A stretch of DNA of 64,000 bases from positions 2,437 through 66,436 of the forward strand of contig JABFVL010000046.1 in NCBI GenBank assembly GCA_013362805.1, read 5' to 3'. Source of the DNA: Mycobacteriales bacterium. Lineage in GTDB: Bacteria > Actinomycetota > Actinomycetes > Mycobacteriales > QHCE01. Within the stretch, counting starts at the first letter, position 1. Every line of letters begins with the position of its first letter. A program made the translations under genes and the position numbers. Below, in pieces: positions 1-26,198 of this stretch. The notes under the pieces are model-generated. The model was not told the DNA's origin, searched no databases, and saw nothing but the letters and a program-made list of their open reading frames with translations.

Positions 1-239
1 CCCGTGGATCCAATAGCCAGCGCACGAAGCTCCGATTCCTCAACCCGGCTCAAAGTCTGGTAGCCGCTACGGTGCGCGGCGAGATCATCTTCTTTGGAGT
101 ACATACTGCCATCTGGTCCGGTGAAGACCAGATTGTCGTCAAGCATTTCAGACAATACTTGCACGTCAGAGGCGAGCTGTGCTTGCTGTAGCCGACGCTC
201 GGCCGAGCGGAGGCCTTCTACCTGGTCATTGTCCGTCAT
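1..239 (-). CDS. NTF2-like (DUF4440/SnoaL-like) protein; N-terminal part only, C-terminus lies outside the window
   Basis: ATG is the reverse complement of cat at 237-239, and the frame stays open to position 1. My translation is MTDNDQVEGLRSAERRLQQAQLASDVQVLSEMLDDNLVFTGPDGSMYSKEDDLAAHRSGYQ..., a pattern typical of DUF4440. No clear SD. It is absent from the ORF track because it is truncated. Confidence 0.5.
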   Translation of the reverse strand, partial: MTDNDQVEGLRSAERRLQQAQLASDVQVLSEMLDDNLVFTGPDGSMYSKEDDLAAHRSGYQTLSRVEESELRALAIGST

Positions 240-390
240 GGGCCGAGTATAGAACCATTTACTGCGGCAATCGTCTCGGACTACCCCGCGGCGACCCACT
301 ATCCACAAGTGACAGTTGGCGGTGTGGCGTGCGAGCTCTGGCATTCAGCTGAGAGTTAGTCTGCTCGAAAAACGCAAGGATGTGACTACA

Positions 391-1548
391 GTGAGTGAAC
401 ACGTCCGAGTATCCGAACGGCTCATGCTGCCCTGGGACCCGGACGTCCCAATCGCCGGGCTCGCCCTGCGGCGCGATGAATATCCCGTACACATGTGCCA
501 GGACGAAGCGAGCACGGTAGCGCGGCTCGGCGCGGAAATCGACGGCCGACGCGTCGCTTTGATCACCGACAACCAGGTAGCGACGCTACACGCACGACGG
601 CTCGCGGATCATTTGACCGAACTCGGACTCGAGGTTTCCATGACCTCCTTCCCCGCGGGGGAAGCGAATAAAAGCCTAGATACGGCAGTTGAATTGTTGA
701 ACTGGCTAGCGGCGACCAAGTTGGCCCGACGAGACGTGGTGCTCGCAGTCGGAGGTGGCGTGGTCATCGACACAGTCGGCTGGGTGGCGAGCGTCTATAT
801 GCGAGGCGTGCCCTATATCAACGTACCCACCACACTGCTCGCGCACGTCGACGCGGCCTTGGGCGGCAAAGTAGCCGTCGACCACCCTAGTGCCAAAAAC
901 CTTATCGGCGCGTTCTACCAGCCAAAAGCTGTGATCTCTAACGTTGGCTACCTCAGCACCTTGTGCACCCGAGAACTGAGGGCCGGACTAGCCGAAGCGA
1001 TTAAAAAAGGAGTCATAGCCTCACCAGAGCTATTCGAGCTCATTGAACAAGAACACACCAATATCTTGGCCGCCGATCCGAAAGTGCTAGCCCAACTGGT
1101 CCGCGGATCCAGTGCTATCAAATGCCATCTGATCGCCAAAGACCCATATGAGCAAGACTTGCGACGGCCACTGAACTTCGGGCACACCATCGGGCATGCG
1201 GTAGAAACAGTCAGCGGCTACGGCCCAATACATCATGGTGAGGCCGTCGCCTTCGGAATGGCCTGCGCCTCCCGGATCGCCGAACGACGTGATGTGCTCA
1301 CCCCGGCGTTGCTGCGGCGAATCGTCGGGCTACTCCAAGAATGCGGCCTGCCCACCACGCTCACTGAGCTACCAGTGTCGTTGAATCCACGGGAAGTTGT
1401 GGCGGCACTGGGCCAAATTCGCAAGATCCGAGATGGCCACCTTCGGTTCGTGCTCCCGGTCGCGCTCGGCGAAACAATCATCGCCAACGACATCACCGAC
1501 GAAGAAATCCACCTCGCCCTAAGCTCACCGGAGCGGTTGGATGGTTGA
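391..1548 (+). CDS. Sugar phosphate cyclase of the 3-dehydroquinate-synthase superfamily (EEVS/EVS/DDGS/DOIS-like rather than shikimate AroB, judged by context)
   Basis: ORF 316..1548. Motifs seen: nucleotide-binding GGGVVIDTVGWVA, PTTLLAHVDAALGGKVAV, and the metal/substrate motif DPYEQDLRRPLNFGHTIGHAVE...HGEAVAFG. Probable GTG start at 391 (AAGGA at 376-380), with 382 also possible. Its stop overlaps the next start by 8 nt. Confidence 0.8.
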   Translation: MSEHVRVSERLMLPWDPDVPIAGLALRRDEYPVHMCQDEASTVARLGAEIDGRRVALITDNQVATLHARRLADHLTELGLEVSMTSFPAGEANKSLDTAVELLNWLAATKLARRDVVLAVGGGVVIDTVGWVASVYMRGVPYINVPTTLLAHVDAALGGKVAVDHPSAKNLIGAFYQPKAVISNVGYLSTLCTRELRAGLAEAIKKGVIASPELFELIEQEHTNILAADPKVLAQLVRGSSAIKCHLIAKDPYEQDLRRPLNFGHTIGHAVETVSGYGPIHHGEAVAFGMACASRIAERRDVLTPALLRRIVGLLQECGLPTTLTELPVSLNPREVVAALGQIRKIRDGHLRFVLPVALGETIIANDITDEEIHLALSSPERLDG

Positions 1549-2437
1549 CCTGGACATCTTTGTAGTGGGCGGGGTTGGCGTAGACACCATCGTGCGAGTG
1601 CCTACCCTGCCGCTGCCGGCCCAGGACACCATCAAAGTTCCGCCCATCCGGCAATATGTCGCGCACACCGGCAACGGGGTGGCGATGGGCTGCCACAACT
1701 TGGGCCTGCGCACGCATCTCGTAGACGTCATCGGCGATGACCCCGAAGGCGCACTAGTGCTCGCACACTACGCCCAAGCGGAGTTGCCCTTCGACTATCA
1801 GAAACATCCAAGCGGGACTAGGCGCAGCGTCAACCTCGTGGACCCGCGAGGCACCCGCCTCTCCCTCTACGATGGACGCCACCCGCCCGACCTCAGCGTC
1901 AACCCTCGGCTATATCGCGAGCCGCTCGGCCGCACACGCCACGCGCATATTTCGCTCATCGATTGGGGCAGACACGTCCTCGCAGAAGCAACCGAGGCTG
2001 GGATCACCACTTCGACGGACCTACACAGCTGGAATGGCAAGGACGAGTACCGCCAAGACTTCGCCTACGGCGCCGACCTTGTCTTTGTCTCTACCAGCGC
2101 ATTGGGCCACCGAATCGAGGAAACCACCGAGAACATCCTGACTCGAGGCCGTGCCCGAGCCGTTGTCGCACTCGCTGGCGGCGATGGGAGTTACCTCAAG
2201 TTGCCCGACCGGCCACTGCGACACATACCCGCGATCGCGCTACCACCAGAACAGGTAGTGGATACCAACGGCGCGGGCGACAGCTACGTGGCCGGATTTT
2301 TGTACGCTCGCCTGTCCGGAAAAGACTGGGAGTCGTGTGCTCAAGCCGGGACTTTGGCTGGCGCGCATGCCGTACGCGCGGCGGGTACACACACCTCATT
2401 CATCACAGCTGAGGAACTCGACCGTGTTCTCGCCTGA
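1541..2437 (+). CDS. PfkB-family (ribokinase-like) sugar/cyclitol kinase
   Basis: N-terminal VVGGVGVDT and the C-terminal PfkB signature DTNGAGDSYVAGF. ATG at 1541 overlaps the cyclase stop at 1546-1548. Confidence 0.85.
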   Translation: MVDLDIFVVGGVGVDTIVRVPTLPLPAQDTIKVPPIRQYVAHTGNGVAMGCHNLGLRTHLVDVIGDDPEGALVLAHYAQAELPFDYQKHPSGTRRSVNLVDPRGTRLSLYDGRHPPDLSVNPRLYREPLGRTRHAHISLIDWGRHVLAEATEAGITTSTDLHSWNGKDEYRQDFAYGADLVFVSTSALGHRIEETTENILTRGRARAVVALAGGDGSYLKLPDRPLRHIPAIALPPEQVVDTNGAGDSYVAGFLYARLSGKDWESCAQAGTLAGAHAVRAAGTHTSFITAEELDRVLA

Positions 2438-3533
2438 CTTGGTCATCCGTCAGACCGGTTCGATCGGTCGTCACATGCTCGTTGAGCAGCACGATCCCAT
2501 CCCGTACGGTCACCCCAGCGGCTACCGTGGCACCAGGCAAAACGATCGAGCGCACAATCTTGGCCCCCGGCTCAATATTGCAACCAGGGTGCACCACGCT
2601 GTCCTCGGCAACCGCGCCTGTTGGCACCTCCGTTCCTAGCAGGCTCCCGGCCACATAGCGCGGCGTGGAATCAGCCAGGGTGCTTGGCAAGGCGCGCGGG
2701 TCGATGGGGTGCGGCTGAGTCAACAGCTTGAGCTGCTCACGGTGATAACGCTCGACGGTTCCGATGTCCGCCCAATACCCCTGGACGGGATACGCCAACA
2801 CTGGGCGACCTTCGGCAATCATCTCCGGAAGCACGTCCCGACTGATGTCGTGCTGCCAGCCATCGACACCTCGGCTGACCAACTGAGCGAGCACCTCTTG
2901 CAGGGCATCGATACGAAACAGGCAGAACGCTGTGAAAACCAGGTCGGAAGTGGGGTGCGCTGGCTTCTCAATCAGCGCACGAACACGCAGGTCAGCGTCA
3001 ACATCGACCATGCCGAACAACCTGACGTACCGCAGCTCGATGCGACGCACACCGATGGTGCAGTGCGCGCCCGAAGCGCGATGTGCGGCCACCATCGGCC
3101 CGTAGTCGAAGCGATAGACGTGGTCAGCATGCAGCACGAGCAGGTCGGTAGCAACGGGGGCGAACAAATATTCGGCGTTGGCCAGCAGCGCGTCGGCCGT
3201 GCCACGTTCGGCGGGACGTGCGGGAAGTACCTGCCCAGACTCCAACCCGCCTTGTGCTCGCAAAAGCTGATCATGGGGTCCGAAGTGAAGTCGCGTGCCC
3301 GTCTGCGTTCCCCAGTGCTTCAGCAAATGATGTACCAGGTCAGACTCGCGATGCAGGGACAGCAGCACCAGCTCGGGAACTCCCGAGTCGACGGTGTTCG
3401 CCACACTAAAATCGACCAACCTGCACGATGCGGCATAGGGGACGAGCGGCTTACAGCTCCGCGCCGTCAACGGGCCCATCCGCTCCCCGAGCCCACCGGC
3501 CAGCAGCGCGCCGCGCACTCCATTGAGCGTCAC
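2403..3533 (-). CDS. GlgC-like sugar-1-phosphate nucleotidyltransferase (ValB/AcbR-type role proposed)
   Basis: N-terminal LLAGGLGERMGPLT...KPLVP motif, followed by a C-terminal left-handed beta-helix-like region. The start overlaps the stop of the upstream TIM-barrel gene (3530-3533). The 3' end converges on and overlaps 1541..2437 by 35 nt. Confidence 0.8.
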   Translation of the reverse strand: MTLNGVRGALLAGGLGERMGPLTARSCKPLVPYAASCRLVDFSVANTVDSGVPELVLLSLHRESDLVHHLLKHWGTQTGTRLHFGPHDQLLRAQGGLESGQVLPARPAERGTADALLANAEYLFAPVATDLLVLHADHVYRFDYGPMVAAHRASGAHCTIGVRRIELRYVRLFGMVDVDADLRVRALIEKPAHPTSDLVFTAFCLFRIDALQEVLAQLVSRGVDGWQHDISRDVLPEMIAEGRPVLAYPVQGYWADIGTVERYHREQLKLLTQPHPIDPRALPSTLADSTPRYVAGSLLGTEVPTGAVAEDSVVHPGCNIEPGAKIVRSIVLPGATVAAGVTVRDGIVLLNEHVTTDRTGLTDDQVRREHGRVPQL

Positions 3534-4492
3534 CAGGTCCTCCCGGCGGCCTGGGCAACGGGTAGCAGCTGACGCAATAGCGCCAACGAGTTCACCACTC
3601 CTTGCTCGGTCGGCAAAAGGGAGTCCTCGTGCTCGATATAGATCACTCCCCGGTAGTTCTCATCTATTAGTGCCGCTATCAGTGCTGGCCAGGACATTTC
3701 GCCGCAGCCCAACGCCCGAAATCGGATCGCGGGACCGGGACCATACCGGGACCAGCCCGGTCCCCGCGGATCTTCTGGCGTTTTCCACCGCTGAAGGTCT
3801 TTGGCGTGCACGACAGCGAGGCGCTCACCCCAGCCCCGGACCGCTGCCACCGGATCATGACCCACCGCGGCGAGGTTTGCCGGATCGACACACAGCTTCA
3901 CCTCCCCGGCGGCGGCGAGCAGCGCTCTGGCGCTGGCCGGGTCGTAAACGACCTGTTTGGGGTGAGGTTCCACTACCACCTGGACGCCCAGCTTCTTGGC
4001 AAGTGCCAGCACTGGTTCCGCCTCCGCTATCCAAGTGTCGATGTTGTCCTGCCAGCTCACCTGGCTACCCCACCAGGACAACCAGCGCCCAAGGTCTGGC
4101 ACGCCTAGCATCAACCGGACTTGCGGAGCGCCGATCCCAGCCGCGAGCTGAACGGTTCCGAGCGCGGCACGCAGCCCATAGTCCCGCTTCTGTGCGGCGG
4201 AGCCAGCAAATATGGGATCGGTATGTGGGCCGTGCGGGCCAAGCAATAGTTGCGCATCGCGGCTGTTGCTGACGCAACCAATGTGGACTTGGGCGGCGGC
4301 CAAGGCCGCCCGCAATTCTTGATGGTGTGCGGGATCCTCGAGCCGGTTGGGATCAACCAGTTTGAGAGTGCTGTCCGTGGGCAGGTCCACCACATCCACG
4401 CCATTTCGGGCAGCTGTGCGCAATGCGGCGTCAAGCCCGGCTGGGGCAAGCGCGGCCAGGCAGAGCCCTATCTGCATAGGTTCGGACATCAT
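3530..4492 (-). CDS. Xylose-isomerase-like TIM-barrel enzyme (sugar phosphate isomerase/epimerase or inosose-dehydratase-like)
   Basis: Motifs VVVEPHP, VVHAKD and IYIEHED are typical of the AP_endonuc_2/IolE fold. The ATG at 4492 shares ATGA with the upstream stop. The Arg-rich 112 aa at the front of ORF 3530..4828 overlap the upstream gene and are rejected. Confidence 0.75.
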   Translation of the reverse strand: MMSEPMQIGLCLAALAPAGLDAALRTAARNGVDVVDLPTDSTLKLVDPNRLEDPAHHQELRAALAAAQVHIGCVSNSRDAQLLLGPHGPHTDPIFAGSAAQKRDYGLRAALGTVQLAAGIGAPQVRLMLGVPDLGRWLSWWGSQVSWQDNIDTWIAEAEPVLALAKKLGVQVVVEPHPKQVVYDPASARALLAAAGEVKLCVDPANLAAVGHDPVAAVRGWGERLAVVHAKDLQRWKTPEDPRGPGWSRYGPGPAIRFRALGCGEMSWPALIAALIDENYRGVIYIEHEDSLLPTEQGVVNSLALLRQLLPVAQAAGRTW

Positions 4493-5439
4493 GTTGCGGT
4501 TCCTTCCATGGATCGGTGCCATGCCCATCGGTCCGCCAGTACCGCTGGCAGTTCGCGTGGGTGCTCGCGTAGCGCGGCTAGCACGGTTTTTGGAGGGTCG
4601 TCGATGATGCTGGGCGGGTTGTCGGCGCCCAGTTCCCGCACGATCTTGTCGGCTAGGGCTTCGGCGAACTCGGGGCAACCTCGGAAAACGCCACCATTGA
4701 GGGTGGCCGACCACTGTGTAGTGAGATTGGCGGCGTCCCTGGCGGCGCGTACCCCGTCGAGCAGATCGGTGATCGCGACGGCCACGATTTCGCTGGCCAC
4801 CGCATCGCCTGTCAGCCAGCAGCGGCACACGGCGCCGGCAAGTGCGGCGACCGCGGCTTTGGGGAATGGTTCGGCGGCGAGTCGGCGGGCGAGCTCACGC
4901 ACCGTGCAGTGAGTGTTCTCGGCGAGTGTCAGCTCAAGGGCGGTCGCGGGGCCGCGTCCATCGGAGGCGCGCACTGCGGCTCGTAGGCCGGCGAGCCCGA
5001 GGGCGAATGCGCTGCCTTCATCGCTGCCGAGGTATTCGCAGCCGCCGACGGAGATGGGTGGGCTGACTCCGTCGCTGGCCAAAAATCCAGATCCGGTGCC
5101 GCAGACTACTGCGACGCCTCGGTTGCGGAGTGGAGCGGCGAGCAGGAGGGGCAGCACGTCTCCGGAGATCACCAGTGTGCCGGCGAGCCCAGAGATTTCG
5201 GCGATGTGGGTCAGCCTGTCGACCTCACGGTGTGGCGCATCCCCACCTACGGTGGCGGTGGCTAGCCAGCCTGTTGTCGGCCCCAGTTGCGCAATGGCGC
5301 GCAGCAACTCCGATAGGCGGCGATCGGCTTCTAATGTTCCGACTGACGCCGCATTCACTGATTCGTGCTTCCACTTTGTTCCGTCATCGAGCAGCACTGT
5401 GGTGCTGCTGCCTCCCGCATCTATCGCCCAATGTCGCAT
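4489..5439 (-). CDS. BadF/BadG/BcrA/BcrD-type ATPase (N-acetylglucosamine-kinase-like sugar kinase)
   Basis: N-terminal phosphate-1 motif WAIDAGGSSTTV, plus GTGSGF and GGCEYLGSDEGSAF actin-fold ATPase motifs. It is the first gene of the minus-strand sub-operon. Confidence 0.75.
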   Translation of the reverse strand: MRHWAIDAGGSSTTVLLDDGTKWKHESVNAASVGTLEADRRLSELLRAIAQLGPTTGWLATATVGGDAPHREVDRLTHIAEISGLAGTLVISGDVLPLLLAAPLRNRGVAVVCGTGSGFLASDGVSPPISVGGCEYLGSDEGSAFALGLAGLRAAVRASDGRGPATALELTLAENTHCTVRELARRLAAEPFPKAAVAALAGAVCRCWLTGDAVASEIVAVAITDLLDGVRAARDAANLTTQWSATLNGGVFRGCPEFAEALADKIVRELGADNPPSIIDDPPKTVLAALREHPRELPAVLADRWAWHRSMEGTAT

Positions 5440-5508
5440 CAGGAATCACCTCTATCGTTACTCAATGTTGCAGAATGATTACGCTACCGACCTGGGTGGC
5501 AAGCTGAC

Positions 5509-6717
5509 GTGGACGACGCGCGATCTGGTTCACAACTGATGAACGGAGTCTGGGTGCGAGGGACGATCATCGGCCGGGGCGGCGGCGTTCTCGGACTGCT
5601 GGCCGTAGCCCTGAGCTGGGGCGTGTTCTGGGGCGGCTGGGCGGCACTCATTCCTGACCTCAAAGCGAACCTCGAACTGACCAACCGACAGCTAGGGCTG
5701 GCGCTCTTCGCCGCCCCCATCGCGGCAATACCGGCCATGCTGCTCACCGGACGGCTGGCGAAACACCTCGCCCAGCGCACCCTTCCAGCGGTGACCGGAA
5801 TATTCGCGCTCAGCGTTCTACTTGTTGGCTTGGCTTCCTCTCGATGGGCGTTTGCGGCGACCCTTCTGCTGCTAGGAGCTGCCAGCGGCGCCATCGAAGT
5901 AGGTCTGAACGCGACAATCGCGGCACGAGAAGCCCGAGACAGTGAGCGCCTATTCAACAAAGTGCAAGCGGCGACCCCGCTGGCAATGGTCGTCTCGGCA
6001 CCGGCCGCGGGCCTAGCCCGAGATCTAGGGGCCTCCTCGTTGGTGGTGCTCACCGCGATCGCCGCGCTGATTATGGTCAGCGCGGTACTCGCGATCGACC
6101 CCACCCCGTGGGATCCGCAGCGCCCACCACCCCCAAAGGCCAATACGCAAAGCCAGCTCCTGGGCCTGCTCATGCTCGTGGGAGCAGTGGGCGCGAGTGT
6201 TCTGTTGATGGAGAACGCGGTGGAGCAATGGGGCGCGATCCATCTGGAACAAGAGTTTGATGTGGACCCGCTTGTGGCCAGCTTCGGCCCGGCCTCATAC
6301 ATGGCCGGACTGGCCGTGGGAAGAATTCTCGCCCAATGGCAAGGGGCACGAGTGCCAGAACACACACTCGTGCTGGTCAGCGGGCTGCTCGGGGGAATTG
6401 GGCTCGCGATGGGTGCAGCGGCTTGGGGCCTGGAATGGACTCTGGCCGGTTTCGCGCTCGCGGGCATCGGCTTGGCACCAGTGCTACCGACACTACTGAG
6501 CGCGGTCGGTCGCACGGTTGATTCGCAACAGCGCTCAAAGGCGGTGTCAGTGGTAACCACAGTCTCCTACGCGGGTTTCCTGCTCAGCCCGCCTCTCGTT
6601 GGCCTGCTCGCTGGAAGTTTCGACCTATCGGCGGCGCTTGGGATCATGGCGCTTTTTGGAGTGCTAGTCGCGGCTGGCGGCAAAGTTCTGGGCCTACTTC
6701 CAAAGGCTCGGATATGA
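5509..6717 (+). CDS. MFS transporter (probable exporter of the cluster product)
   Basis: About 12 hydrophobic segments across 402 aa. The start is uncertain: GTG 5509, ATG 5539, or GTG 5557 behind ACGGAG. The stop overlaps the next start (ATGA at 6714-6717). Confidence 0.75.
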   Translation: MDDARSGSQLMNGVWVRGTIIGRGGGVLGLLAVALSWGVFWGGWAALIPDLKANLELTNRQLGLALFAAPIAAIPAMLLTGRLAKHLAQRTLPAVTGIFALSVLLVGLASSRWAFAATLLLLGAASGAIEVGLNATIAAREARDSERLFNKVQAATPLAMVVSAPAAGLARDLGASSLVVLTAIAALIMVSAVLAIDPTPWDPQRPPPPKANTQSQLLGLLMLVGAVGASVLLMENAVEQWGAIHLEQEFDVDPLVASFGPASYMAGLAVGRILAQWQGARVPEHTLVLVSGLLGGIGLAMGAAAWGLEWTLAGFALAGIGLAPVLPTLLSAVGRTVDSQQRSKAVSVVTTVSYAGFLLSPPLVGLLAGSFDLSAALGIMALFGVLVAAGGKVLGLLPKARI

Positions 6718-7616
6718 CCGGCCAACGCGTGCTCATCATCGGCGCTGGATACATCGCGAGTCACATTGCACGCCGACTTGCCACGCTCGGCCACACAATC
6801 GTCCTCAGTTCGCGACACGAATCCACACCTGCGGGCGAACAACTCGGTTGGCTTCCGGTCGACGTGCGAGAACGACAATCGGTGCACTCTCTCATCAGGG
6901 CCGCCTGCCCGGACACAGTCATCACGGTGCACGGCCCGTCCGACATCACCTGGTGCGAGGCCAACCCAGAACAGGCCACCGCAGCGCACCAGCGCGGTGC
7001 CAGCTACTTGGCCGAAGCATTCGAAAATGGCCGAATCATCGCGATCTCCACTGACAATGTTTTTCCCGGCCACGCGGAAAGCTGCGGCGAATCCGCGCCA
7101 ACCGCACCCGCCAACACCTACGGTCGAGCCAAACTCGCGGCTGAGAACATCCTGTTGGCCACCCATAACGCCCTCGCGCTGCGGGTAAGTCTCGTCTATG
7201 GGTGGGACAGCTCAGGATTGCGGCCAAACTTTTTCACTACCTGCGCGCAGCAACTGCGCGCGGCCCGGCCCGTGGTGGTGCCCGCCGACTGTTGGAACAC
7301 GCCAGTCTTGGCGGACGACGTAGCCGAATGGACCGCCGCCTTGCTGGACTCCGCGCACACGGGCGTCATACACCTTGGCGGCCCACGACGGCTGACCCGA
7401 CTCGCTTGGGCCACACACATCGCTCAGACCTATGGGGTCGACCCCGACCTCGTCAGCGCCGCGCCACAAGAAAGCACCGGCTATGCGTGCCGCCCACGCA
7501 ATGCGTGCCTGCACAGCGAGCGCGCGGCGGGCATTCCCGAACTAGCGGTGCTAGCCCCAATGGACGTTTTGGAAGCCAGCACCAAGCTCATCCTTACCGG
7601 AGAGGACTACCTATGA
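6714..7616 (+). CDS. RmlD-like NAD(P)-dependent SDR (reductase/epimerase)
   Basis: Rossmann motif IIGAGYIASH, ISTDNVFPG, and the catalytic YGRAKLAAE (YxxxK), as in dTDP-4-dehydrorhamnose reductase-type proteins. Confidence 0.8.
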   Translation: MTGQRVLIIGAGYIASHIARRLATLGHTIVLSSRHESTPAGEQLGWLPVDVRERQSVHSLIRAACPDTVITVHGPSDITWCEANPEQATAAHQRGASYLAEAFENGRIIAISTDNVFPGHAESCGESAPTAPANTYGRAKLAAENILLATHNALALRVSLVYGWDSSGLRPNFFTTCAQQLRAARPVVVPADCWNTPVLADDVAEWTAALLDSAHTGVIHLGGPRRLTRLAWATHIAQTYGVDPDLVSAAPQESTGYACRPRNACLHSERAAGIPELAVLAPMDVLEASTKLILTGEDYL

Positions 7617-9058
7617 CCGATCGCCGATTCTTCCTTGCCAGTAAAAGAGCCGCTGTCAGCTACGCACCGAACCCACAGAGCGGGGAACTTCAACCCTGGC
7701 TTGCTCCCGGCGGAACCGGCAATGTCGTGGCCGAGCAGGCTGGGGTACTTGATGTGTCCTGGATCGCCAGTGCCGACACCGACGAGGATCACCGGGCCGC
7801 TCAAGAAAACCCAGCGGGCATCACTCTTCGTCTTAGATCCGGCCGCGACATACGCATCCAGCTGCTTCGACACGACCGACAAACCTTCGATGTCGTGCAA
7901 AATTTCCTGACCGCACAGCTGCTATGGGCGGCTAACAATCACGGCTGGGATACCTGGACCACCCCGACTTTTGATGCTGACACCTATCGCGCCATGGAAC
8001 GCTACGCCGAATTCACCAATGACTTCGCCGATGCTTTGCTAAAAAATTCCGCTGACACGAAAGATCCGACCTACCTGGTCCACGACTATCAACTCATCGG
8101 GGTCCCGGCCAAACTGCGCGTTCAACGGCCGGATGCGCCGATTCTGCTCTTTGTACACATACCGTGGCCCGCTGCCGACTATTGGCGAGTCTTGCCCAAG
8201 CCCATGCGCACTAGCCTCTTGGAGGGCATGCTCCCCGCCACCACCATTGGGTTCTTCGCCGAACGTTGGGTGCGCAACTTCCTGGAATGTGTGTCAGATC
8301 TGCTGCCCGACGCACAAGTCAACCGCGACTCAGGCATCGTCCGGTGGCGTGGTCACCACACCCACGTGCGCGCGATGCCGCTCGGCTATAGCCCGTTGGC
8401 GCTCGAACACCGCGCACCCCGCCTACCTGAGGACATTGAGCAGTGGGCGGGCAAACATCCACTTGTTGTCCACAGTGGCCGTACGGATCCGATGAAGAAC
8501 GCCGAGCGCGCCGTGCAGGCCTTCGTCCTCGCGATGCGAACCGAGGAACGGTTGCGTGGCACCAGAATGCTGGTGCGGATGAACCCCAACCGGCTCTATG
8601 TGGAAGCTAACGCCCACTACCTGCGTCGGGTCGAGGCCGCGATAGCCGACGCTAACGCCCAGTTGAGCACTGAGGCGGTGCGTCTGCATTGCGACAACGA
8701 GGTGGAACACAGCATCGCCTGTTTTCAACGCGCTGACCTGCTGATCTTCAACTCGACGGTCGACGGCCAAAATTTGAGTACTTTCGAGGCTCCGTTGGTG
8801 AACGAGCGCGACGCCGAGGTCGTCTTGTCGGAAAGGTGCGGCGCCGCCGAAGTGCTCGGCAACGTTTGTCGCGTTGTCAACCCGTTCGACCTCGTTGAAC
8901 AGGCCGAAGCGATTGTCGCGGGTCTCACCACCCCGGCCGCTGACCGCGCGGAAACCGCCAGACGGCGCCGCGAGGTCGCCGCACCATGGACGCTGGAGGC
9001 CTGGGTGCGAGCTCAGCTCGACGGGCTCGCCGCCGACCACCGGGCCCGCGATGAGTGA
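7613..9058 (+). CDS. GT20 family (trehalose-6-phosphate-synthase-like) transferase, a candidate pseudoglycosyltransferase (VldE/ValL/SalC-like)
   Basis: OtsA-like motifs are present but altered: VHDYQL, FVHIPWPA, GRTDPMKN, DGQNLSTFEAP. ATG at 7613 lies behind GGAGAGGA and shares ATGA with the upstream stop. The 137 aa at the front of ORF 7202..9058 overlap the SDR gene and are rejected. Confidence 0.8.
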   Translation: MTDRRFFLASKRAAVSYAPNPQSGELQPWLAPGGTGNVVAEQAGVLDVSWIASADTDEDHRAAQENPAGITLRLRSGRDIRIQLLRHDRQTFDVVQNFLTAQLLWAANNHGWDTWTTPTFDADTYRAMERYAEFTNDFADALLKNSADTKDPTYLVHDYQLIGVPAKLRVQRPDAPILLFVHIPWPAADYWRVLPKPMRTSLLEGMLPATTIGFFAERWVRNFLECVSDLLPDAQVNRDSGIVRWRGHHTHVRAMPLGYSPLALEHRAPRLPEDIEQWAGKHPLVVHSGRTDPMKNAERAVQAFVLAMRTEERLRGTRMLVRMNPNRLYVEANAHYLRRVEAAIADANAQLSTEAVRLHCDNEVEHSIACFQRADLLIFNSTVDGQNLSTFEAPLVNERDAEVVLSERCGAAEVLGNVCRVVNPFDLVEQAEAIVAGLTTPAADRAETARRRREVAAPWTLEAWVRAQLDGLAADHRARDE

Positions 9059-10325
9059 AGCAACGCACAGCGCGGATCCAAGCCGCTTGGCGCAATATCA
9101 GCTCGGTGATTCCATGTTGGTGCACGGCGAAGGTGTGCGCGCGTGGGACAGCACGGGACGCGAATATCTGGACTGTGTGTCAGGCACGTTCAATTTGCTG
9201 CTGGGGCACAACCACCCCGAGGTGATGGCAGCAGTGCGCGCGCAAACCGAGCAGTTGACCTTCGCCAGCTCCTCGTTCCAGACCGAAGCCACAAATCAGG
9301 TGATGCGCGAGTTGGTCAAGCTCAGCCCCGCGAATCTCACCCGGGTGAATTTGCGCAGCTCAGGTGGCTCTACCGCCAATGAGGGTGCGATCAAGATCGC
9401 GCAGTATTTCACGGGGCGAAGCGATGTCATCGTGCCGTTTCGGGGCCATGTTGGGCAGACGTTGGCCACCGCGAGTTTCAACGGATTCAACCGGATGCGC
9501 GCGCCTTTCCCGCATCAATTGCCCGGCGCTCTGCACGTGCCCGGGCCGTATTGTTTCCGCTGTTTCTACCGCCAGACTCCCGATGTCTGCCAGTTGCTCT
9601 GCGTGGAACGAATTGAGGACTTCATCGAGTACGCCGGTTCTGGCAGCGTCGCGTGCGTGATCATGGAGCCAATCAGTGGGGTGGGCGGCAACGTGGTTCC
9701 ACCGCCCGGATATCTCCAAGAGCTGCGCGCTTTTTGCGATGCTCACGAAATCGTGCTGATCTTCGATGAAATTCAGACCGCTTTTGGCCGGACGGGTGAG
9801 ATGTTCGCGGCTGATCACTTCCAAGTGCAACCGCACATCATGACCGTCGCGAAGGGATTGACCGGCAGCGGCTTGCCTCTAGCGGCCATCTTGACCGAGG
9901 AGCGAATGGCGAATTGGGAACGTACACTGCACGGCTTCACCTACGGCGGACACAACCTGTCCGCGGCGGCAGCCGTAAAAACGCTAGAAATCGTGCAGCG
10001 TGCTGGGTTCCTGGAAAATGTTCGAGCCAGCGGTAGCGTTCTTATCGACCGGCTGCGCGCCCTCGCGCGGGATTATCCAATCATCGGCGAAGTTCGTGGG
10101 CTTGGACTCATGCTGGGCATAGAACTGGTCAAGCCCGATGGTGGAAAAGCCGTTGAAGCCGCGAACACGTTTCAACGCGAGCTGCAACAACTGGGGGTGC
10201 TCACTCGGGTGTCTGAGCATGGTCTTGGCAACGTCATCGAGCTGCGCCCACCGCTCATTTTGACCCCAGAAGACGCACATGTGGTCGCGGATCGATTCGG
10301 TGAAGCATTGGGTGTCTTCGCATGA
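9051..10325 (+). CDS. Class-III (PLP) aminotransferase
   Basis: Motifs SSGGSTANEGAIK, DEIQTAFGRTGEMFA, and the PLP lysine context MTVAKGL. ATG at 9051 overlaps the GT20 stop by 8 nt. Confidence 0.85.
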   Translation: MSEATHSADPSRLAQYQLGDSMLVHGEGVRAWDSTGREYLDCVSGTFNLLLGHNHPEVMAAVRAQTEQLTFASSSFQTEATNQVMRELVKLSPANLTRVNLRSSGGSTANEGAIKIAQYFTGRSDVIVPFRGHVGQTLATASFNGFNRMRAPFPHQLPGALHVPGPYCFRCFYRQTPDVCQLLCVERIEDFIEYAGSGSVACVIMEPISGVGGNVVPPPGYLQELRAFCDAHEIVLIFDEIQTAFGRTGEMFAADHFQVQPHIMTVAKGLTGSGLPLAAILTEERMANWERTLHGFTYGGHNLSAAAAVKTLEIVQRAGFLENVRASGSVLIDRLRALARDYPIIGEVRGLGLMLGIELVKPDGGKAVEAANTFQRELQQLGVLTRVSEHGLGNVIELRPPLILTPEDAHVVADRFGEALGVFA

Positions 10326-11317
10326 GGGTCACTTTGAGCGCCGACGGACCGCGCCTGAACCTGGCTCCAGCAACGCGGCCACCTGGTCAATATGCCGTTC
10401 GTGTGCGCGTCGAGCTGGCCGGGCTGTGCCGGTCGGACCTCAAAGAAGTACGCGGTGACCGACACGGAGTCGGCCAATTCGGGCATGAACTCGTCGGCGT
10501 CATCGAGGAGTCAACGTTCCCGGATTTGCCCCCGGGGCATCGGGTGACGCTCGATCCGAACGTGCCCGTGGAGCGCGGCACTGGCTTCGCGACGGACATG
10601 TGGGTAGCTGGGTCTGCCATCCACCTCGCGGCGGCACTGCCATCGCTTCCGCCACGGGTAGATGCCCGCAGACTGGTGTTTACCGAGCCGCTGGCCTGCG
10701 CCCAACATTGCCTCTCGGCAGTCTCCCGCCATCTCGGCTCGGACCTATCGGGCCGGCGCGTCGGTGTGCTCGGCGCGGGCATCGCCGGGGTTCTCATCGC
10801 GGTACTCGCCCGCACACTCAACGCCGTTGTAGTGCTAGGAAACCGCAGCGAGGACCGCGCATCCTTTGTACGCGCGAGCGGCATCCTTGACGCGCCGATC
10901 CGTTTGACGGAGTCTCTGCCCATCGACACCCTGGATGTCGCGGTGGTGGCAACAAGTTTTGTCCGAGCGGACATTTTGCGGCAGGCTTTGCGCGTCATCG
11001 CGCCGGGCGGGCTGGTGCTGCTTTACGGAGGCACAGCTCCCGGTGACCGGCTACCCGGGCTTGACTGCGATCTAGACGCGACACGTCGTAGCGAAACATC
11101 GGTGGCCACCATGTGGCGGGGCAAACCGGTTCGAGTGGGCGGCAGTTATGGCACGGTGCCAAGCGATTTCACGGCCGCGGTTCGGGCACTCACTCGACAG
11201 CCGACCCTGCGGGTTGAGCGCCTGATCACTCGAGAGGTCAGGCTCGCGAACCTGCCGAGCGTGCTCCAGCAGCAGAGCACGCGACGCGCCCTCGGCAAGA
11301 CACTTGTGCACACATAA
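10322..11317 (+). CDS. Zn-dependent medium-chain dehydrogenase/reductase (ValN/AcbL-like cyclitol dehydrogenase role proposed)
   Basis: Motifs GLCRSD, GHELVG, EPLACA, and the Rossmann motif VLGAGIAG. ATGA overlap with the aminotransferase stop. Confidence 0.8.
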   Translation: MRVTLSADGPRLNLAPATRPPGQYAVRVRVELAGLCRSDLKEVRGDRHGVGQFGHELVGVIEESTFPDLPPGHRVTLDPNVPVERGTGFATDMWVAGSAIHLAAALPSLPPRVDARRLVFTEPLACAQHCLSAVSRHLGSDLSGRRVGVLGAGIAGVLIAVLARTLNAVVVLGNRSEDRASFVRASGILDAPIRLTESLPIDTLDVAVVATSFVRADILRQALRVIAPGGLVLLYGGTAPGDRLPGLDCDLDATRRSETSVATMWRGKPVRVGGSYGTVPSDFTAAVRALTRQPTLRVERLITREVRLANLPSVLQQQSTRRALGKTLVHT

Positions 11318-11406
11318 TTCTCACAGCTTTCCATCCTTCTTCCGAAGCCAGCCAGTCCGGTAACGTTGGGCACCCAAGCAGCAAGAGTCTGTTTCGACCA
11401 AAGGGG

Positions 11407-12402
11407 ATGAGCTTCATGCGCGGTGTTCTGGTGGAGACCGCTGGTCCGGCAGAATCTTTGCGGGTGCAAGACATTCCGGAACCATCACCTGGTGCGGGTG
11501 AGATCTCGATCAAGGTTTCCTACGCTGGCGTTGGTTTCGTCGACACTTTGTTCCGCGCGGGGGCTTTCGATCTGCCGATGCCCCTTATCCCGGGAATTGA
11601 GGTGACTGGCCATGTGCTCAAAGTGGGGGACGGGGTTGATCGATTCACTGTGGGCCAGCCCGTCGCCGCCACCCTTAATGATTTTGGTCGGGGCATGCGG
11701 GCAGGGGGTTATGCGGAAGTCGCGGTAGCGCACTCCAGTATGGCTGTGCCGGTTCCCGATGATGCTGACTTGGCCAAAATCACCGCCGGCCTGGTGAATG
11801 GCGCCACGGCGTGGATCGCGCTACACGACCTTGCGCGCCTTGGGGTTTCTGACGATGTGCTTGTGCTCGGAGCCAGTGGAGGTTTGGGAAGCATCACGGG
11901 CCGGCTTGCCGCACTGCATCCGGCGCGTCGAGTATTTGGCGTAACTGGAAGTCCTCATAAGAACCTTTTTGGGTCATCGGCATGGACTGAGATAATTCGG
12001 GGTTCCGAACTCGAAAGTGTCCTGGATGACCTGACTGACGGGCGTGGCGTGGATATTGTCATCGACCCAGTGGGCGATGAGCTGCGCTCTCAGGCCTTTG
12101 AGCGCTTGGCACCATTCGGCCGGCATGTCGTGTTGGGGGACGCCAGCGGCAATGACCGAAGCTTTTCAGCCGATTCGGCTTGGTTGAATACCCGCCAAGT
12201 GATCGGTTTCAACATGGGCGGCACGGCGCATCTGATTCCCGATCGGGTTCAAAACGCTCTGTCCGCGGTGGTGGGGCTTATCCATCGCGGTGTGCTTCAG
12301 GAGGTGGAGCCAGCCGTCTTGCCGTTGGAGCAAGCGGCGCAAGTACATCAAACCTTGGAAAATCGAACCGCCCCAGCGAAAACAGTTCTTTCGATTGTGT
12401 GA
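11407..12402 (+). CDS. Quinone-oxidoreductase-like MDR (zeta-crystallin type NADPH oxidoreductase)
   Basis: GroES-like N-terminus (EISIKVSYAGVGFVD), the Rossmann motif VLGASGGLGS, and no catalytic Zn ligands. It lies 89 nt downstream of the cluster on the same strand. Confidence 0.8.
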   Translation: MSFMRGVLVETAGPAESLRVQDIPEPSPGAGEISIKVSYAGVGFVDTLFRAGAFDLPMPLIPGIEVTGHVLKVGDGVDRFTVGQPVAATLNDFGRGMRAGGYAEVAVAHSSMAVPVPDDADLAKITAGLVNGATAWIALHDLARLGVSDDVLVLGASGGLGSITGRLAALHPARRVFGVTGSPHKNLFGSSAWTEIIRGSELESVLDDLTDGRGVDIVIDPVGDELRSQAFERLAPFGRHVVLGDASGNDRSFSADSAWLNTRQVIGFNMGGTAHLIPDRVQNALSAVVGLIHRGVLQEVEPAVLPLEQAAQVHQTLENRTAPAKTVLSIV

Positions 12403-12434: not shown

Positions 12435-13031
12435 CTACCGAGTGTCAGCGATGATCGCATCGAGCTGCTGAATCAGTCGCGCGCTTTCACGTTTCATGAT
12501 GTCAGGTTCCCGGAGCGCATTGGCCAGCACTGACATTCCTTGGTACGCGCCCACGAGTGCGATCGCCTTGTCTTGGGGTTTAGGCACGCCGAGCTCTTGG
12601 AACTGTGCGGCGACCCAGTCCAGCAGGGCACGAATCACGTTGCCCACTTCGGCATCTAGGCCAGCTTCGGCTCTTTTGTCGAGCTCGGCGGCGAGCGTGC
12701 CGGTGGGGCACCCGTACCGAGCTGCGGTTTCCCCTTGGGCACCCCATTGGTTGATGAGAGCTTTCAATCGCTCGCGAGGATCGGGCAGTTCGTTGAGGTG
12801 GCCGGTGAGTAGTTCCAGTTGTCTGGCTTGTTCGCTGACTGCCGCCGCGACGAGGTCGTCTTTAGTTTTGAAGTAGTAGTACACGTTGCCCACGGGCACA
12901 TCGGCTGCTTGTGCGATGTCGCTGATTGTGGTTCGTTCCACGCCTTGCTGGTGGACTATCCGGGCAGCGGCCTCGGTGAGTCGTGCCCGTTTTGTGGGCC
13001 GTGGAACGTTCTTTTCAACCAAGTTAGTCAC
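12435..13031 (-). CDS. TetR family transcriptional regulator
   Basis: N-terminal HTH: RLTEAAARIVHQQGVERTTISDIAQAADVPVGNVYYYFKTKDDL. The GTG start at 13031 lies inside an operator-like palindrome. Confidence 0.9.
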   Translation of the reverse strand: MTNLVEKNVPRPTKRARLTEAAARIVHQQGVERTTISDIAQAADVPVGNVYYYFKTKDDLVAAAVSEQARQLELLTGHLNELPDPRERLKALINQWGAQGETAARYGCPTGTLAAELDKRAEAGLDAEVGNVIRALLDWVAAQFQELGVPKPQDKAIALVGAYQGMSVLANALREPDIMKRESARLIQQLDAIIADTR

Positions 13032-13086
13032 CTGACTAACTATACAAGGATCATTCTGTTATGGTTTTAGTTAGTCAACTAACTAA
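13022..13086. promoter_or_regulatory. Two operator-like palindromes in the divergent TetR/NmrA intergenic region
   Basis: 13022-13041 is AGTTAGTCA-cc-TGACTAACT and 13067-13086 is TTAGTTAGT-ca-ACTAACTAA. Both have perfect 9-bp arms and share the TTAGT/ACTAA half-site. Confidence 0.65.
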
Positions 13087-13095
13087 GGGGTTATC

Positions 13096-13917
13096 ATGAT
13101 CGTAGTTACCGGCGCGACTGGAAACGTCGGCCGCGCATTAGTTGGTCACCTGCTTGACGCCGACCGCGACGTGACCGCCGTCGCCAGGAACATCAACGGC
13201 GCACACGTGCCGCCTGGGGTAAAAGCCGTCGCCGCCGACCTGGCAGACCCACAGAGCCTTACCCCAGCATTCGACGGCGCCACCGCACTCTTCCTACTCG
13301 TCGCGGGCGAAGACCCCAAGCACATCCTAGAAACCGCAAAACGCGCCGGAATTACGAAAGTCGTACTGCTCTCCACTCAAGGAGCCGCGACACGACCACA
13401 CATCTACCAACACGCCGTGCGATTTGAGGAAGCCGTGCGTGACTCTGGCATGCGGTGGACAATCCTCCGATCAGGAGGCATGGCCTCAAACGCGCTCGCC
13501 TGGGTCGAACCCATCCGCGAGCACGGAATAGCGGCGGCGCCCTTCGCTAACGTCGGGCTTCCATTTATCGACCCCGAAGACGTCGCCGCCGTAAGCGCCG
13601 CCGTTCTCCGCGAAGACCAGCACCACGGCACCACATACACGTTAACCGGGCCCGAACTCAGCACCCCCCGCCAACGCGCCGCCACACTGGCCAAGGCGAC
13701 CAGCAGGCCGATCCAGTTCATCGAGCAAACCCGCGAAGAAGCCCATTCCTTAATGACAAAATTCATGCCCGCTCAAGTCGCGGAAGGCACCCTCGCCATT
13801 TTGGGCACGCCCACCCCCGAAGAGCAGCAGATTAGTCCCGATGTCACACATGTGCTCGGCCGCGAACCACAACCATTTAGCGCTTGGGCGGCACGCCATG
13901 CCACCCTGTTTAAATAG
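13096..13917 (+). CDS. NmrA-like NAD(P)H-binding protein (atypical SDR)
   Basis: N-terminal IVVTGATGNVGRALV, SD AAGGGG upstream. Divergent from the TetR gene. Confidence 0.85.
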   Translation: MIVVTGATGNVGRALVGHLLDADRDVTAVARNINGAHVPPGVKAVAADLADPQSLTPAFDGATALFLLVAGEDPKHILETAKRAGITKVVLLSTQGAATRPHIYQHAVRFEEAVRDSGMRWTILRSGGMASNALAWVEPIREHGIAAAPFANVGLPFIDPEDVAAVSAAVLREDQHHGTTYTLTGPELSTPRQRAATLAKATSRPIQFIEQTREEAHSLMTKFMPAQVAEGTLAILGTPTPEEQQISPDVTHVLGREPQPFSAWAARHATLFK

Positions 13918-14005
13918 ACTGCATCGCGTAGGAAATACAAGATTTCCCAGCTCGTAAGTATCGTCACAAGGCCCGACGGCATCGCGCCGCTGATACGTTG
14001 ACGCT

Positions 14006-14359
14006 ATGTCGATGTCCGCGAAAATGGTGACTTTTGACTGCGCAGACCCACAACGTCTAGCCGCGTGGTGGGCTGATGCTTTGGGCATAAAAGTTGGGGA
14101 TGACTACGGCGAATTTGTCCTGGTGCCTAACGAGCCGATTGTGCTGGGCTTTCAGAAGGTGCCCGAGACAAAACAAACAAAAAATCGTCTTCACCTGGAC
14201 TTTTACACCGATGATCGCCTGAATGAAGTAGCGCGGCTAGAGAAACTCGGCGCCCGGAGCATCGCCGAAAACTCAGTGCCAGGTCTGACATGGACGACCA
14301 TGCAAGACCCCGATGGCAACGAATTTGACGTCTCAGGCCCACCAAGCCAAAGCGATTAA
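14006..14359 (+). CDS. VOC (glyoxalase-like) family protein
   Basis: 117 aa. The VTFDCADPQRLAAWWADALG...LHLDF pattern is typical of glyoxalase-like domain proteins. Confidence 0.75.
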   Translation: MSMSAKMVTFDCADPQRLAAWWADALGIKVGDDYGEFVLVPNEPIVLGFQKVPETKQTKNRLHLDFYTDDRLNEVARLEKLGARSIAENSVPGLTWTTMQDPDGNEFDVSGPPSQSD

Positions 14360-14404
14360 TAATCGCACCGCTCACATCGCTCGGAGCTCGGGTCGTGATC
14401 TCAT

Positions 14405-14947
14405 GTGGGAATGATTGGAAAGCTTGAAACTCATCTCGCCACAACACGACCCGAGCTCCTAGCAGCGCCCGTTTCAAAAGCACTCCAGGACTTGCCTGGC
14501 GAGCTCTCGCAACATGTTGAAGTAGCTGAGATTGATCCCGATCTAGCGGACACCGCCGCATTCTGCGCACACTACGACGTGCCCTTGGCCCAGTCAGCGA
14601 ACTGCGTAATCGCGGCAGGCACTCGAGCTGGCGTCACCTCACTGGCGGGAGTTTTGGTTCTCGCCACTACTCGCGCCGACATCAACGGCACACTGCGACG
14701 ACTCCTCGGAGCCCGGAAGGCAAGTTTTGCTTCCATGGAGCAAGCCGTATCCGAAAGCGGAATGGAATATGGCGGCATAACTCCTATTGGGTTGCCGAGC
14801 TCTTGGCCTTTGTTCATCGATTCTCGCGTTGTCGCGGCCGGCCAGGTGGTTATCGGCTCTGGTTTGCGCAAGAGCAAGATCGTGGTGCCCGCACAGGCGC
14901 TGTCGCTACTGCCAAATACGCAAGTCATCGACGATCTCGCACGGTGA
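14405..14947 (+). CDS. YbaK/EbsC-like aminoacyl-tRNA editing-domain protein
   Basis: 180 aa with a ...GGITPIGLP... core and ...VVIGSGLRKSKI..., typical of the YbaK/ProX deacylase fold. Confidence 0.65.
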   Translation: MGMIGKLETHLATTRPELLAAPVSKALQDLPGELSQHVEVAEIDPDLADTAAFCAHYDVPLAQSANCVIAAGTRAGVTSLAGVLVLATTRADINGTLRRLLGARKASFASMEQAVSESGMEYGGITPIGLPSSWPLFIDSRVVAAGQVVIGSGLRKSKIVVPAQALSLLPNTQVIDDLAR

Positions 14948-25868: not shown

Positions 25869-25876
25869 GGCCGCGC

Positions 25877-26140: not shown

Positions 26141-26198
26141 CTGCCCGCCCTTTCAATCGACCCGGCAAACAACCAGTCTAGTTCGGCGACAAGGGGTG

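Follow-up and report, generated by a model that had tools for sequence, protein, structure and literature searches.

We describe a ten-gene cluster at positions 391-11317 of a 64,000-nt stretch of a Mycobacteriales genome (GenBank assembly GCA_013362805.1, contig JABFVL010000046.1, positions 2,437 to 66,436 of the forward strand), hereafter the window. Judged from its sequence, the cluster appears to be self-contained and would make a validoxylamine-A-type C7N pseudo-disaccharide by the 'alternative' route of Actinosynnema mirum, a reading to which we give a probability of about 80%. Validamycin, a major fungicide against rice sheath blight and the standard trehalase inhibitor, owes its trehalase-inhibiting core (the pharmacophore) to validoxylamine A. 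The closest prototype is the A. mirum DSM 43827 cluster, not the val/vld cluster, because all nine A. mirum functions have orthologues in the window. A described prototype exists, and the variant feature here is an extra kinase (g2) of the AcbK/Mak type.

The reading is carried by the coupling enzyme g8, which matches VldE in both score and ligand contacts, by orthologues of ValB, ValK, ValM and ValN, and by co-inheritance of the genes. On this evidence, the proposal of a C7N-aminocyclitol, validoxylamine-like cluster in a first-pass annotation of this DNA is upheld, and Pfam assignments agree with the gene families which it listed. The genes, numbered g1-g10, are as follows:

391-1548, + strand: g1, DHQS-like (3-dehydroquinate synthase-like) sugar-phosphate cyclase; Pfam DHQ_synthase and DHQS_C
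1541-2437, + strand: g2, kinase of the AcbK/Mak1 (acarbose kinase) type; Pfam PfkB
2403-3533, - strand: g3, GlgC-like nucleotidyltransferase (NT), ValB/VldB analogue; Pfam NTP_transferase
3530-4492, - strand: g4, xylose-isomerase-like TIM barrel; Pfam AP_endonuc_2
4489-5439, - strand: g5, BadF/BadG-type, GlcNAc-kinase-like kinase; Pfam BcrAD_BadFG
5440-5508, no strand: short, divergent g5/g6 intergenic region, presumed bidirectional promoter region of the g5-g4-g3 and g6-g10 operons
5509-6717, + strand: g6, major facilitator superfamily (MFS) transporter, a putative exporter; Pfam MFS_1
6714-7616, + strand: g7, RmlD-like short-chain dehydrogenase/reductase (SDR), ValK orthologue; Pfam RmlD_sub_bind
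7613-9058, + strand: g8, GT20 pseudoglycosyltransferase, VldE/ValL orthologue
9051-10325, + strand: g9, class-III aminotransferase (AT), ValM orthologue; Pfam Aminotran_3
10322-11317, + strand: g10, medium-chain dehydrogenase/reductase (MDR), ValN orthologue; Pfam ADH_N and Glu_dehyd_C

The coupling enzyme

The strongest step of the proposed pathway is that of g8, which by its bit score and conserved contact residues is a VldE-type pseudoglycosyltransferase. It scores 752 bits against the VldE structures 3vdm and 8iye, compared to 152 bits against the best structure of OtsA (trehalose-6-phosphate synthase). It is about 69-75% identical to VldE (69% in the Streptomyces hygroscopicus locus, L031) and 64% identical to the A. 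mirum GT20 protein ACU35945, which was found in the 90% cluster of an Actinosynnema GT20 protein.

Ligand contacts were taken from the published VldE list (PMC3441724), using as a ruler the S. hygroscopicus protein of L031, which is VldE itself (1031 bits). Nineteen of the 21 contacts are kept in g8, including the guanine-specific Arg321 and Asn323, as well as Asn325, and the donor and acceptor cyclitol contacts are all identical. The two changes, D362E (a backbone contact) and T366S (which retains the hydroxyl), both fall in the guanine pocket. Asn325 of VldE is a serine in OtsA (PMC3441724), and an OtsA-like control from Rubrobacter (L073) differs at 8/21 contacts, including Arg321, Asn323, Asn325, Thr366 and Ser388. 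g8 does not belong with OtsA: VldE is far closer, and Asn325 replaces the OtsA serine.

The cyclase

The first-pass annotation equated the cyclase with ValA, which does not hold. Against ValA, g1 has 33% identity, compared with 55% against the cyclase of the A. mirum cluster. It has the DHQS-like motif LNFGHTIGHA and lacks VDFGHSFSP, the motif of 2-epi-5-epi-valiolone synthases (EEVS), and where EEVS (ValA) has an Asp/Pro active-site signature, g1 has the DHQS-type Asn/His. In a neighbour-joining tree, g1 and 24 actinobacterial DHQS-like cyclases (including those of Actinosynnema) form one clade in 100/100 bootstraps, and a split with 100% support separates this clade, together with DHQS, from EEVS. 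Enzymes of the 2-epi-valiolone synthase (EVS) type have been reported to be DHQS-like (PMC5133447).

g1 scores 334 bits against TIGR01357 (aroB), for which the curated cut-off is 305, while the cluster cyclase of Actinosynnema pretiosum scores 322, ValA 206 and a Burkholderia EEVS 215 bits. Because the A. pretiosum cluster cyclase also passes, this cut-off cannot separate the g1 clade from DHQS. The suggestion in the first-pass annotation that a cyclase grouping with AroB would speak against the cluster is not a valid test, even though g1 superficially does so (by the cut-off and by its place on the DHQS side). The best solved relatives of g1 are genuine AroB proteins, but gammaproteobacterial AroB (227 bits) is the nearer match and the actinobacterial AroB of Mycobacterium tuberculosis (169 bits) the more distant one, so g1 is not the host lineage's housekeeping AroB.

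At 28 positions, the g1 clade departs from a residue that is invariant in three DHQS structures (e.g., VDSS to VDAA, GGKT to GGKV, VN to VD, DEKE to DPYE, and Ala to Arg before LN), so g1 does not carry the full set of DHQS-invariant residues, and the window likewise contains no aro (shikimate-pathway) genes. Cyclases of the myxobacterial clusters have about half of the 28 changes too, and EEVS have several of them (the VDSS Ser to Ala, DEKE to DPYE, and the Ala to Arg preceding LN). These features support an A. mirum-type cyclase, derived from DHQS and dedicated to the cluster, and we predict g1 to be a sedoheptulose-7-phosphate cyclase of the EVS type.

The other pathway enzymes

The nine-gene set (all but g2) maps one-to-one on ValA, B, C, D, K, L, M and N plus an exporter, and the map drawn in the first-pass annotation, with a TIM barrel for ValD and a kinase of another family for ValC, is sound. 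Three functions are displaced: the cyclase (EEVS to DHQS-like), the kinase (ROK to BadF) and ValD (VOC to TIM).

A g4 profile built from 14 orthologues matches an uncharacterised Streptomyces coelicolor TIM barrel (2zds, 112 bits) and a 2-hydroxy-3-keto-glucal hydratase (8ro4, 83 bits), with further matches to IolE inosose dehydratase and AsbF dehydroshikimate dehydratase. The best characterised relatives are hydratases/dehydratases of cyclic keto-sugars and cyclitols, not epimerases as the first-pass annotation assumed for the TIM barrel. They suggest metal-dependent enolisation of cyclic ketones, and dehydration of a valiolone-type compound to valienone would fit at least as well as C-2 epimerisation. 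We therefore word our prediction broadly: g4 may be a cyclitol-ketone dehydratase and/or C-2 epimerase.

The best solved relative of g5 is the MurNAc/GlcNAc kinase 8zo3. The BadF protein is the sole kinase of the nine-gene clusters, and g5 is predicted to be a cyclitol C-7 kinase, i.e., a functional analogue of ValC. A. mirum-type clusters have a BadF::TIM fusion of 627-660 aa, whereas the window has separate genes coupled by the ATGA at 4489. In the A. mirum protein, the kinase half shares 49% identity with g5 and the TIM half 60% with g4. Because the two are fused in sister clusters (a Rosetta-stone argument), g5 and g4 are suggested to act in consecutive steps. The fusions are:

BadF::TIM fusion genes: L086:4217-6196 (A. 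mirum, 659 aa); L049:4252-6183; L033:5667-7646; L044:4780-6660

The remaining enzymes have counterparts in both L031 and A. mirum, and their predicted roles follow those of the Val proteins. g3 is 47% identical to the NT gene adjoining ValA in L031 and 62% to its A. mirum orthologue, and is a predicted valienol-1-phosphate guanylyltransferase. g7 (57% to the gene upstream of VldE, 52% to A. mirum) would be the ketoreductase that forms valienol 7-phosphate. g9 (75% to the gene downstream of VldE, 66% to A. mirum) is a predicted aminotransferase from validone 7-phosphate to validamine 7-phosphate. g10 (58% to the fourth gene of the VldE operon, 55% to A. mirum) is a predicted enone reductase from valienone 7-phosphate to validone 7-phosphate. 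The transporter g6 is 50% identical to its A. mirum orthologue and occupies a conserved place in the loci of Kitasatospora, Embleya and Actinosynnema.

A related set of genes occurs in Actinoplanes missouriensis 431 (AP012319.1, L080:8564-21188), where a DHQS-like cyclase with 66% identity belongs to another kind of cluster, apparently not yet characterised, that also has MFS, haloacid dehalogenase-type (HAD), RmlD-like SDR, BadF, TIM, PIG-L, MDR, P450, methyltransferase and FAD-monooxygenase genes. Since this cluster is without a pseudoglycosyltransferase, the cyclase-kinase-TIM-SDR-MDR cassette is reused.

Gene layout and starts

All ten open reading frames (ORFs) are intact, with no internal stops at the coordinates given (by ORF listing and direct inspection), and they form three translationally coupled blocks: g1-g2 (+), g5-g4-g3 (-) and g6-g10 (+). 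Five 4-nt overlaps had been listed as ATGA, which is correct at 4489, 6714, 7613 and 10322. The overlap at 3530 is instead GTGA, because the downstream gene has a GTG start. The 8-nt overlaps at 1541 and 9051 are confirmed, and g2 and g3 are convergent with a 35-nt overlap. An independent assembly (L079) of a public sequencing run, SRR11467474, contains an identical segment with the same gene calls.

The GTG start of the cyclase at 391 is supported by alignment to a Kitasatospora orthologue which shares the N-terminal 'VRVSERL', while the source annotation places the start 11 codons downstream. For g4, the longest ORF (3530-4828) is over-extended, and a start at 4492 gives a protein of 320 aa, as called in L079. 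The start of g6 is ambiguous (5509, 5539 or 5554; the source gene call is 387 aa). Promoter and terminator consensus matches were not above shuffled expectation, and no promoter is shown at 5440-5508, where the count (one sigma-70-like match at 5502-5475, - strand) does not exceed that expectation either. No Rfam element was found within 1-13 kb of the window.

Relatives, co-inheritance and borders

The relatives comprise 78 loci around VldE homologues, drawn from a scan of one genome per species and compared using a tblastn matrix of the window proteins. All ten genes are present in the window's order in 15 loci (Kitasatospora, Embleya, Streptomyces, Streptacidiphilus and Streptantibioticus), and nine genes without PfkB are present in another 24 (Actinosynnema, Saccharothrix, Umezawaea, Actinoallomurus, Actinomadura, Actinophytocola and several metagenome-assembled genomes, MAGs). 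The first-pass annotation had staked its cluster on co-conservation in related genomes, and the genes are indeed not scattered. The block recurs in dozens of genomes, which is far more than chance.

In Kitasatospora kazusensis, conservation starts exactly at the cyclase and stops exactly at the MDR gene, with both flanks unique. Because the conservation borders are this sharp at g1 and g10 (the last conserved gene of the block), we take the unit to be g1-g10. The earlier count of ten or eleven genes can thus be settled at ten. The proposed eleventh, a QOR-like MDR gene at 11407-12402, is a real gene, but we rejected it as a cluster member, as it has no counterpart beside the cluster in the 78 related loci. 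Together with the TetR and NmrA genes, it belongs to the neighbouring host DNA.

Just outside the cluster, a gene at window 3-239 (- strand, start 239, MTDNDQVEGLRSAERRLQQAQ...), which continues past the left edge of the window, appears by eye to encode a small SnoaL/NTF2-like protein, and nothing similar occurs at that position in related loci, which marks the left cluster border. On the right, a 19-nt inverted repeat (of the TTAGTCA...TGACTAA type) at 13024-13086 lies between the TetR gene (12435-13031, -) and the NmrA gene (13096-13917, +). It is probably a TetR operator, sits outside the cluster and was the only clear palindrome in a search of the cluster edges.

Some related loci have features of their own. 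The cluster variant of Allokutzneria sp. A3M-2-11 16 (L082:1-4700 and 13980-14675) has two PfkB genes with a GMC oxidoreductase and a luciferase-like monooxygenase between them, as well as an I36 protease-inhibitor gene and, just downstream, a HAD hydrolase; it may make a modified product. In Streptacidiphilus sp. 4-A2 and two MAGs (L067, L052 and L070, at ~10001-11440), the GT20 gene matches at 70-80% but in pieces only, with no single alignment spanning half of the protein, which suggests frameshifts or cluster decay in those assemblies.

Comparison with known clusters

The A. mirum DSM 43827 cluster (CP001630.1, ~2.204-2.215 Mb, L086) has the NT, BadF::TIM and DHQS-like cyclase genes on one strand and MFS-SDR-GT20-AT-MDR on the other. 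It contains all nine functions, with reciprocal matches of 49-66% for the full accessory set (NT, BadF, TIM, SDR, AT, MDR and MFS), and the window shares its defining combination of a VldE-like GT20 clustered with a DHQS-like, not EEVS-like, cyclase. The MFS-SDR-GT20-AT-MDR order is also the same, and in A. mirum, as in the window, the block lacks a HAD phosphatase and there is no glycosyltransferase of the ValG type. The two differ in three respects. A. mirum has no counterpart of the PfkB kinase that the window adds; the cyclase forms its own two-gene operon with g2 in the window but heads the NT/kinase/TIM operon in A. mirum; and the BadF and TIM genes are separate in the window but a single fusion in A. 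mirum. An EVS-dependent route to validoxylamine A has been reported for A. mirum (PMC12904256, citing Asamizu et al. 2012/2013).

Further out in A. mirum, 2-3.5 kb beyond the MDR gene (L086:16007-17490), there are a HAD hydrolase and an APH-family kinase. These are possible candidates for the missing phosphatase and for a resistance kinase, respectively, in that organism.

The S. hygroscopicus val/vld cluster (L031) shares the VldE/ValL, ValM, ValN, ValK and ValB orthologues and the same K-L-M-N order, and the same coupling chemistry would be expected. It differs from the window in having an EEVS (ValA), a ROK kinase (ValC), a VOC epimerase (ValD), ValG and a VldH/ValO-type HAD phosphatase. 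Conversely, the true validamycin loci (L030 and L031), in which the cyclase is 33% identical to g1, have no TIM, BadF or PfkB gene. By Pfam, 391-11317 contains no glycosyltransferase besides GT20, no VOC protein and no ROK protein, i.e., no ValG, ValD or ValC of the validamycin kind; a glyoxalase-fold gene at 14006-14359 lies outside the conserved block. The first-pass annotation was therefore right that the cluster has neither a ValG-type glycosyltransferase nor a HAD phosphatase, and the latter extends to all ORFs of >=180 aa in the 64-kb window. Because there is no ValG, glucosylation to validamycin A is not expected.

Beyond actinomycetes, a myxobacterial locus (Cystobacter/Archangiaceae) contains the same nine families, including the DHQS-like cyclase, TIM and BadF. 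Burkholderiales loci (Burkholderia leaf symbionts) share the SDR-GT20-AT-MDR operon but have EEVS-type cyclases and no TIM or BadF. Identities to both are much lower (29-59%), and none of these clusters has a PfkB kinase.

Proposed pathway and product

The pathway would begin with cyclisation of sedoheptulose 7-phosphate by g1. This would give a ketocyclitol of the valiolone type, and orthology to the A. mirum cluster cyclase makes 2-epi-valiolone the likeliest one. g5 would then phosphorylate C-7, and g4 would dehydrate the product to the enone and/or epimerise C-2, giving valienone 7-phosphate. From here, by homology to the Val enzymes, one arm would lead to the acceptor: g10 (ValN-like) would reduce the enone to validone 7-phosphate, and g9 (ValM-like) would transaminate this to validamine 7-phosphate. 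The other arm would lead to the donor: g7 (ValK-like) would reduce valienone 7-phosphate to valienol 7-phosphate, an enzyme encoded outside the cluster would shift the phosphate from position 7 to 1, and g3 (ValB-like) would then form GDP-valienol.

In the step best supported by homology, g8 would join GDP-valienol and validamine 7-phosphate through a non-glycosidic C-N bond to give validoxylamine A 7'-phosphate. An unlinked phosphatase would dephosphorylate this, and g6 would export the product. Inside the cell, g2 would most likely re-phosphorylate the valienamine-type unit of the finished inhibitor for self-protection, as AcbK does with acarbose.

Several points weigh against this reading. 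No HAD, phosphomutase (PGM) or trehalose-phosphatase-like gene, and no obvious C-1 kinase, was found among ORFs of >=180 aa in the 64-kb window, so two steps (the 7-to-1 phosphate shift and the final dephosphorylation) depend on other enzymes, unless g2 or g5 is a C-1 kinase. No cluster-linked regulator is present. g1 keeps the metal ligands and the equivalents of the DHQS substrate contacts (Lys250, Arg264, Asn268 and His275), and because all of these classical equivalents are retained, sequence cannot prove the use of sedoheptulose 7-phosphate or a 2-epi product. The cyclase tree contains only three bona fide DHQS sequences, none of them actinobacterial, and its branching order of DHQS, actinobacterial clade and myxobacterial clade is weak (31-46% bootstrap). 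The EVS tested in A. mirum is presumably the cluster cyclase Amir_2000, with which gene order and accession number are consistent. The product itself is deduced from the conserved VldE contacts and the ValM and ValN orthologues. Lastly, the overlap and translational coupling of g2 with the cyclase gene would also be compatible with a role early in biosynthesis.

With regard to the absent phosphatase, both Allokutzneria and A. mirum do have HAD genes in the vicinity of the cluster.

The extra kinase

g2 is a full-length homologue of two acarbose kinases: it matches Mak1 (6wb4) at 298 bits (~53% identity) and AcbK (6wb7) at 225 bits (~46% identity), both over the full length, while any other solved PfkB kinase scores <=52 bits. 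Its catalytic GAGD motif is intact. In the acarbose producer Actinoplanes, AcbK is a 7-kinase of acarbose that serves in self-resistance (PMC9200736, PMC9854587), and Mak1, an acarbose kinase of the human microbiome, inactivates acarbose and confers resistance (PMC9053282). Like acbK, g2 sits inside a pseudosugar cluster. Unlike the acarbose system, however, the window has a VldE-type GT20 and no acarbose-specific genes, so the substrate of g2 is not acarbose made in cis.

The gene is present in 21 related loci and absent from A. mirum-type and validamycin clusters, and the BadF kinase is kept wherever g2 occurs, i.e., g2 is additive. Because it is added atop the BadF kinase and missing from A. 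mirum-type clusters, we favour a role on the product or in self-resistance, which seems more probable than not and clearly likelier than one as a core biosynthetic kinase or ValC substitute. The first-pass annotation had noted that both kinases come from families other than that of ValC. This is apt for BadF as the ValC analogue, but PfkB does not replace ValC and is better described as an AcbK/Mak1-type add-on. More specifically, g2 could be a validoxylamine (trehalase-inhibitor) kinase and the self-resistance determinant for GT20-type pseudosugars, a narrower proposal that we hold tentatively, at somewhat less than even odds.

The main alternative for g2 is that it is a core biosynthetic kinase, acting either as the C-7 kinase on the free cyclitol or as a valienol-7-phosphate 1-kinase (AcbU-like), with BadF taking the other role. 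Its start overlaps the cyclase stop codon by 8 nt, implying co-translation, and enzymes of the AcbK type act on a valienamine-type ring at its C-7 hydroxyl (PMC9200736), which is the position that needs a phosphate on the monomer. The pathway also needs both a C-7 and a C-1 phosphate in a cluster without a mutase, and the acarbose route has a dedicated 1-kinase, AcbU (PMC9200736). However, the 24 sister clusters, including that of the reported validoxylamine A producer A. mirum, have no PfkB gene within 10 kb, every g2-bearing cluster retains the BadF kinase, and both AcbK and Mak1 act on a finished pseudo-oligosaccharide (PMC9200736, PMC9053282, PMC9854587). We therefore consider a core biosynthetic role unlikely, if still the best of the alternatives.

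A second PfkB-domain protein is encoded elsewhere in the window (52898-54622, +). It has 574 aa with a ~215-aa N-terminal extension without a Pfam match, and it is unrelated to g2.

Other products and primary metabolism

Slightly less likely again is that the cluster makes a different pseudosugar: a stably phosphorylated validoxylamine, a C-2/C-5 epimeric analogue, or a compound with another amino acceptor (salbostatin-like). The extra kinase and the absence of a phosphatase from the cluster are in its favour, as are the D362E and T366S changes at VldE contact positions of g8, the identities of only 49-66% between the cluster proteins and those of A. mirum, and the Allokutzneria relatives, whose extra oxidoreductases imply that the scaffold is being varied. 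Set against this, both g8 changes are in the guanine pocket and the donor and acceptor cyclitol contacts are identical, the ValM and ValN orthologues (75% and 58%) indicate a validamine 7-phosphate acceptor, and Pfam finds no glucosamine- or anhydroglucitol-forming genes. We thus set aside the salbostatin-like product that the first-pass annotation had also allowed: it is less likely, given a validamine acceptor and no aminosugar genes. In a related scenario, the ten-gene subfamily might have as its end product an analogue of validoxylamine that is phosphorylated or new in some other way.

Primary metabolism, with the genes encoding AroB (shikimate), OtsA, GlgC (ADP-glucose) and a ribokinase, is barely credible: although g1 scores above the curated cut-off for aroB and has homologues named '3-dehydroquinate synthase' in public records (as those of g8 are named 'trehalose-6-phosphate synthase'), the A. 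pretiosum cyclase from an A. mirum-type cluster passes the cut-off equally, g1 is nearer to gammaproteobacterial AroB than to that of M. tuberculosis and so is no housekeeping copy, it is embedded in and co-inherited with a pseudosugar cluster whose ten genes move as a unit with sharp borders and unrelated flanks in many genera, and g8 has both VldE-specific residues and a far higher score for VldE than for OtsA.

Significance

Under the validoxylamine A reading, the less-studied DHQS-like (EVS-type) route is widespread, occurring in at least 49 loci from more than 12 actinomycete genera, plus myxobacteria. It is systematically mis-annotated as '3-dehydroquinate synthase' plus 'trehalose-6-phosphate synthase' and will consequently be missed by genome mining and metabolic models. 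The AcbK/Mak-type kinase may protect producers from a trehalase inhibitor. If so, inactivation by C-7 phosphorylation would extend from alpha-glucosidase inhibitors (acarbose) to trehalase inhibitors, and the g2 family would be ready-made mobile resistance genes against validamycin-class compounds. The small size of the cluster (11 kb) and its moderate-GC host make it convenient for heterologous expression.

Genomic setting

The cluster has a GC content of 62.7%, compared to 58.9% for the rest of the window, and a third-codon-position GC content (GC3) of 69.7% versus 65.9% (p about 0.001-0.004). Its proteins are 66-81% identical to those of Kitasatospora, whereas the host PurL is <=77% identical to that of any named organism (the best being Cryptosporangium, order Cryptosporangiales). 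Because of this compositional offset and these identities, the cluster was probably acquired horizontally, which fits an older transfer from a high-GC actinomycete. The cluster edges have no flanking direct or inverted repeats, integrase or tRNA. A plasmid origin was rejected, as neither the 12-kb DNA nor the GT20 protein has a PLSDB match.

Outside the cluster, the window consists of core chromosomal DNA, with purM, purF, purL, purQ, purB, purD, and glyA with a ZTP riboswitch. This ZMP/ZTP riboswitch (46591-46699, -) scores 42.3 bits against a gathering threshold of 39; it immediately precedes glyA (45305-46564, -) and is beside the pur block. A TPP riboswitch (60210-60322, -) lies inside the 5' end of the longest ORF for a solute-binding protein (59164-60426, -), and because of this overlap, the true start of that protein is downstream of 60210. 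Together with a permease (57524-59200) and an ATPase (56811-57584), it probably forms a thiamine-related ABC importer. At 23118-29065 (-), a 916-aa FtsK/SpoIIIE-domain protein, a 500-aa Hsp70-like protein and a 455-aa DnaJ-plus-TPR protein are encoded next to each other in a region of strongly negative GC skew, which looks like a dedicated chaperone/translocase module.

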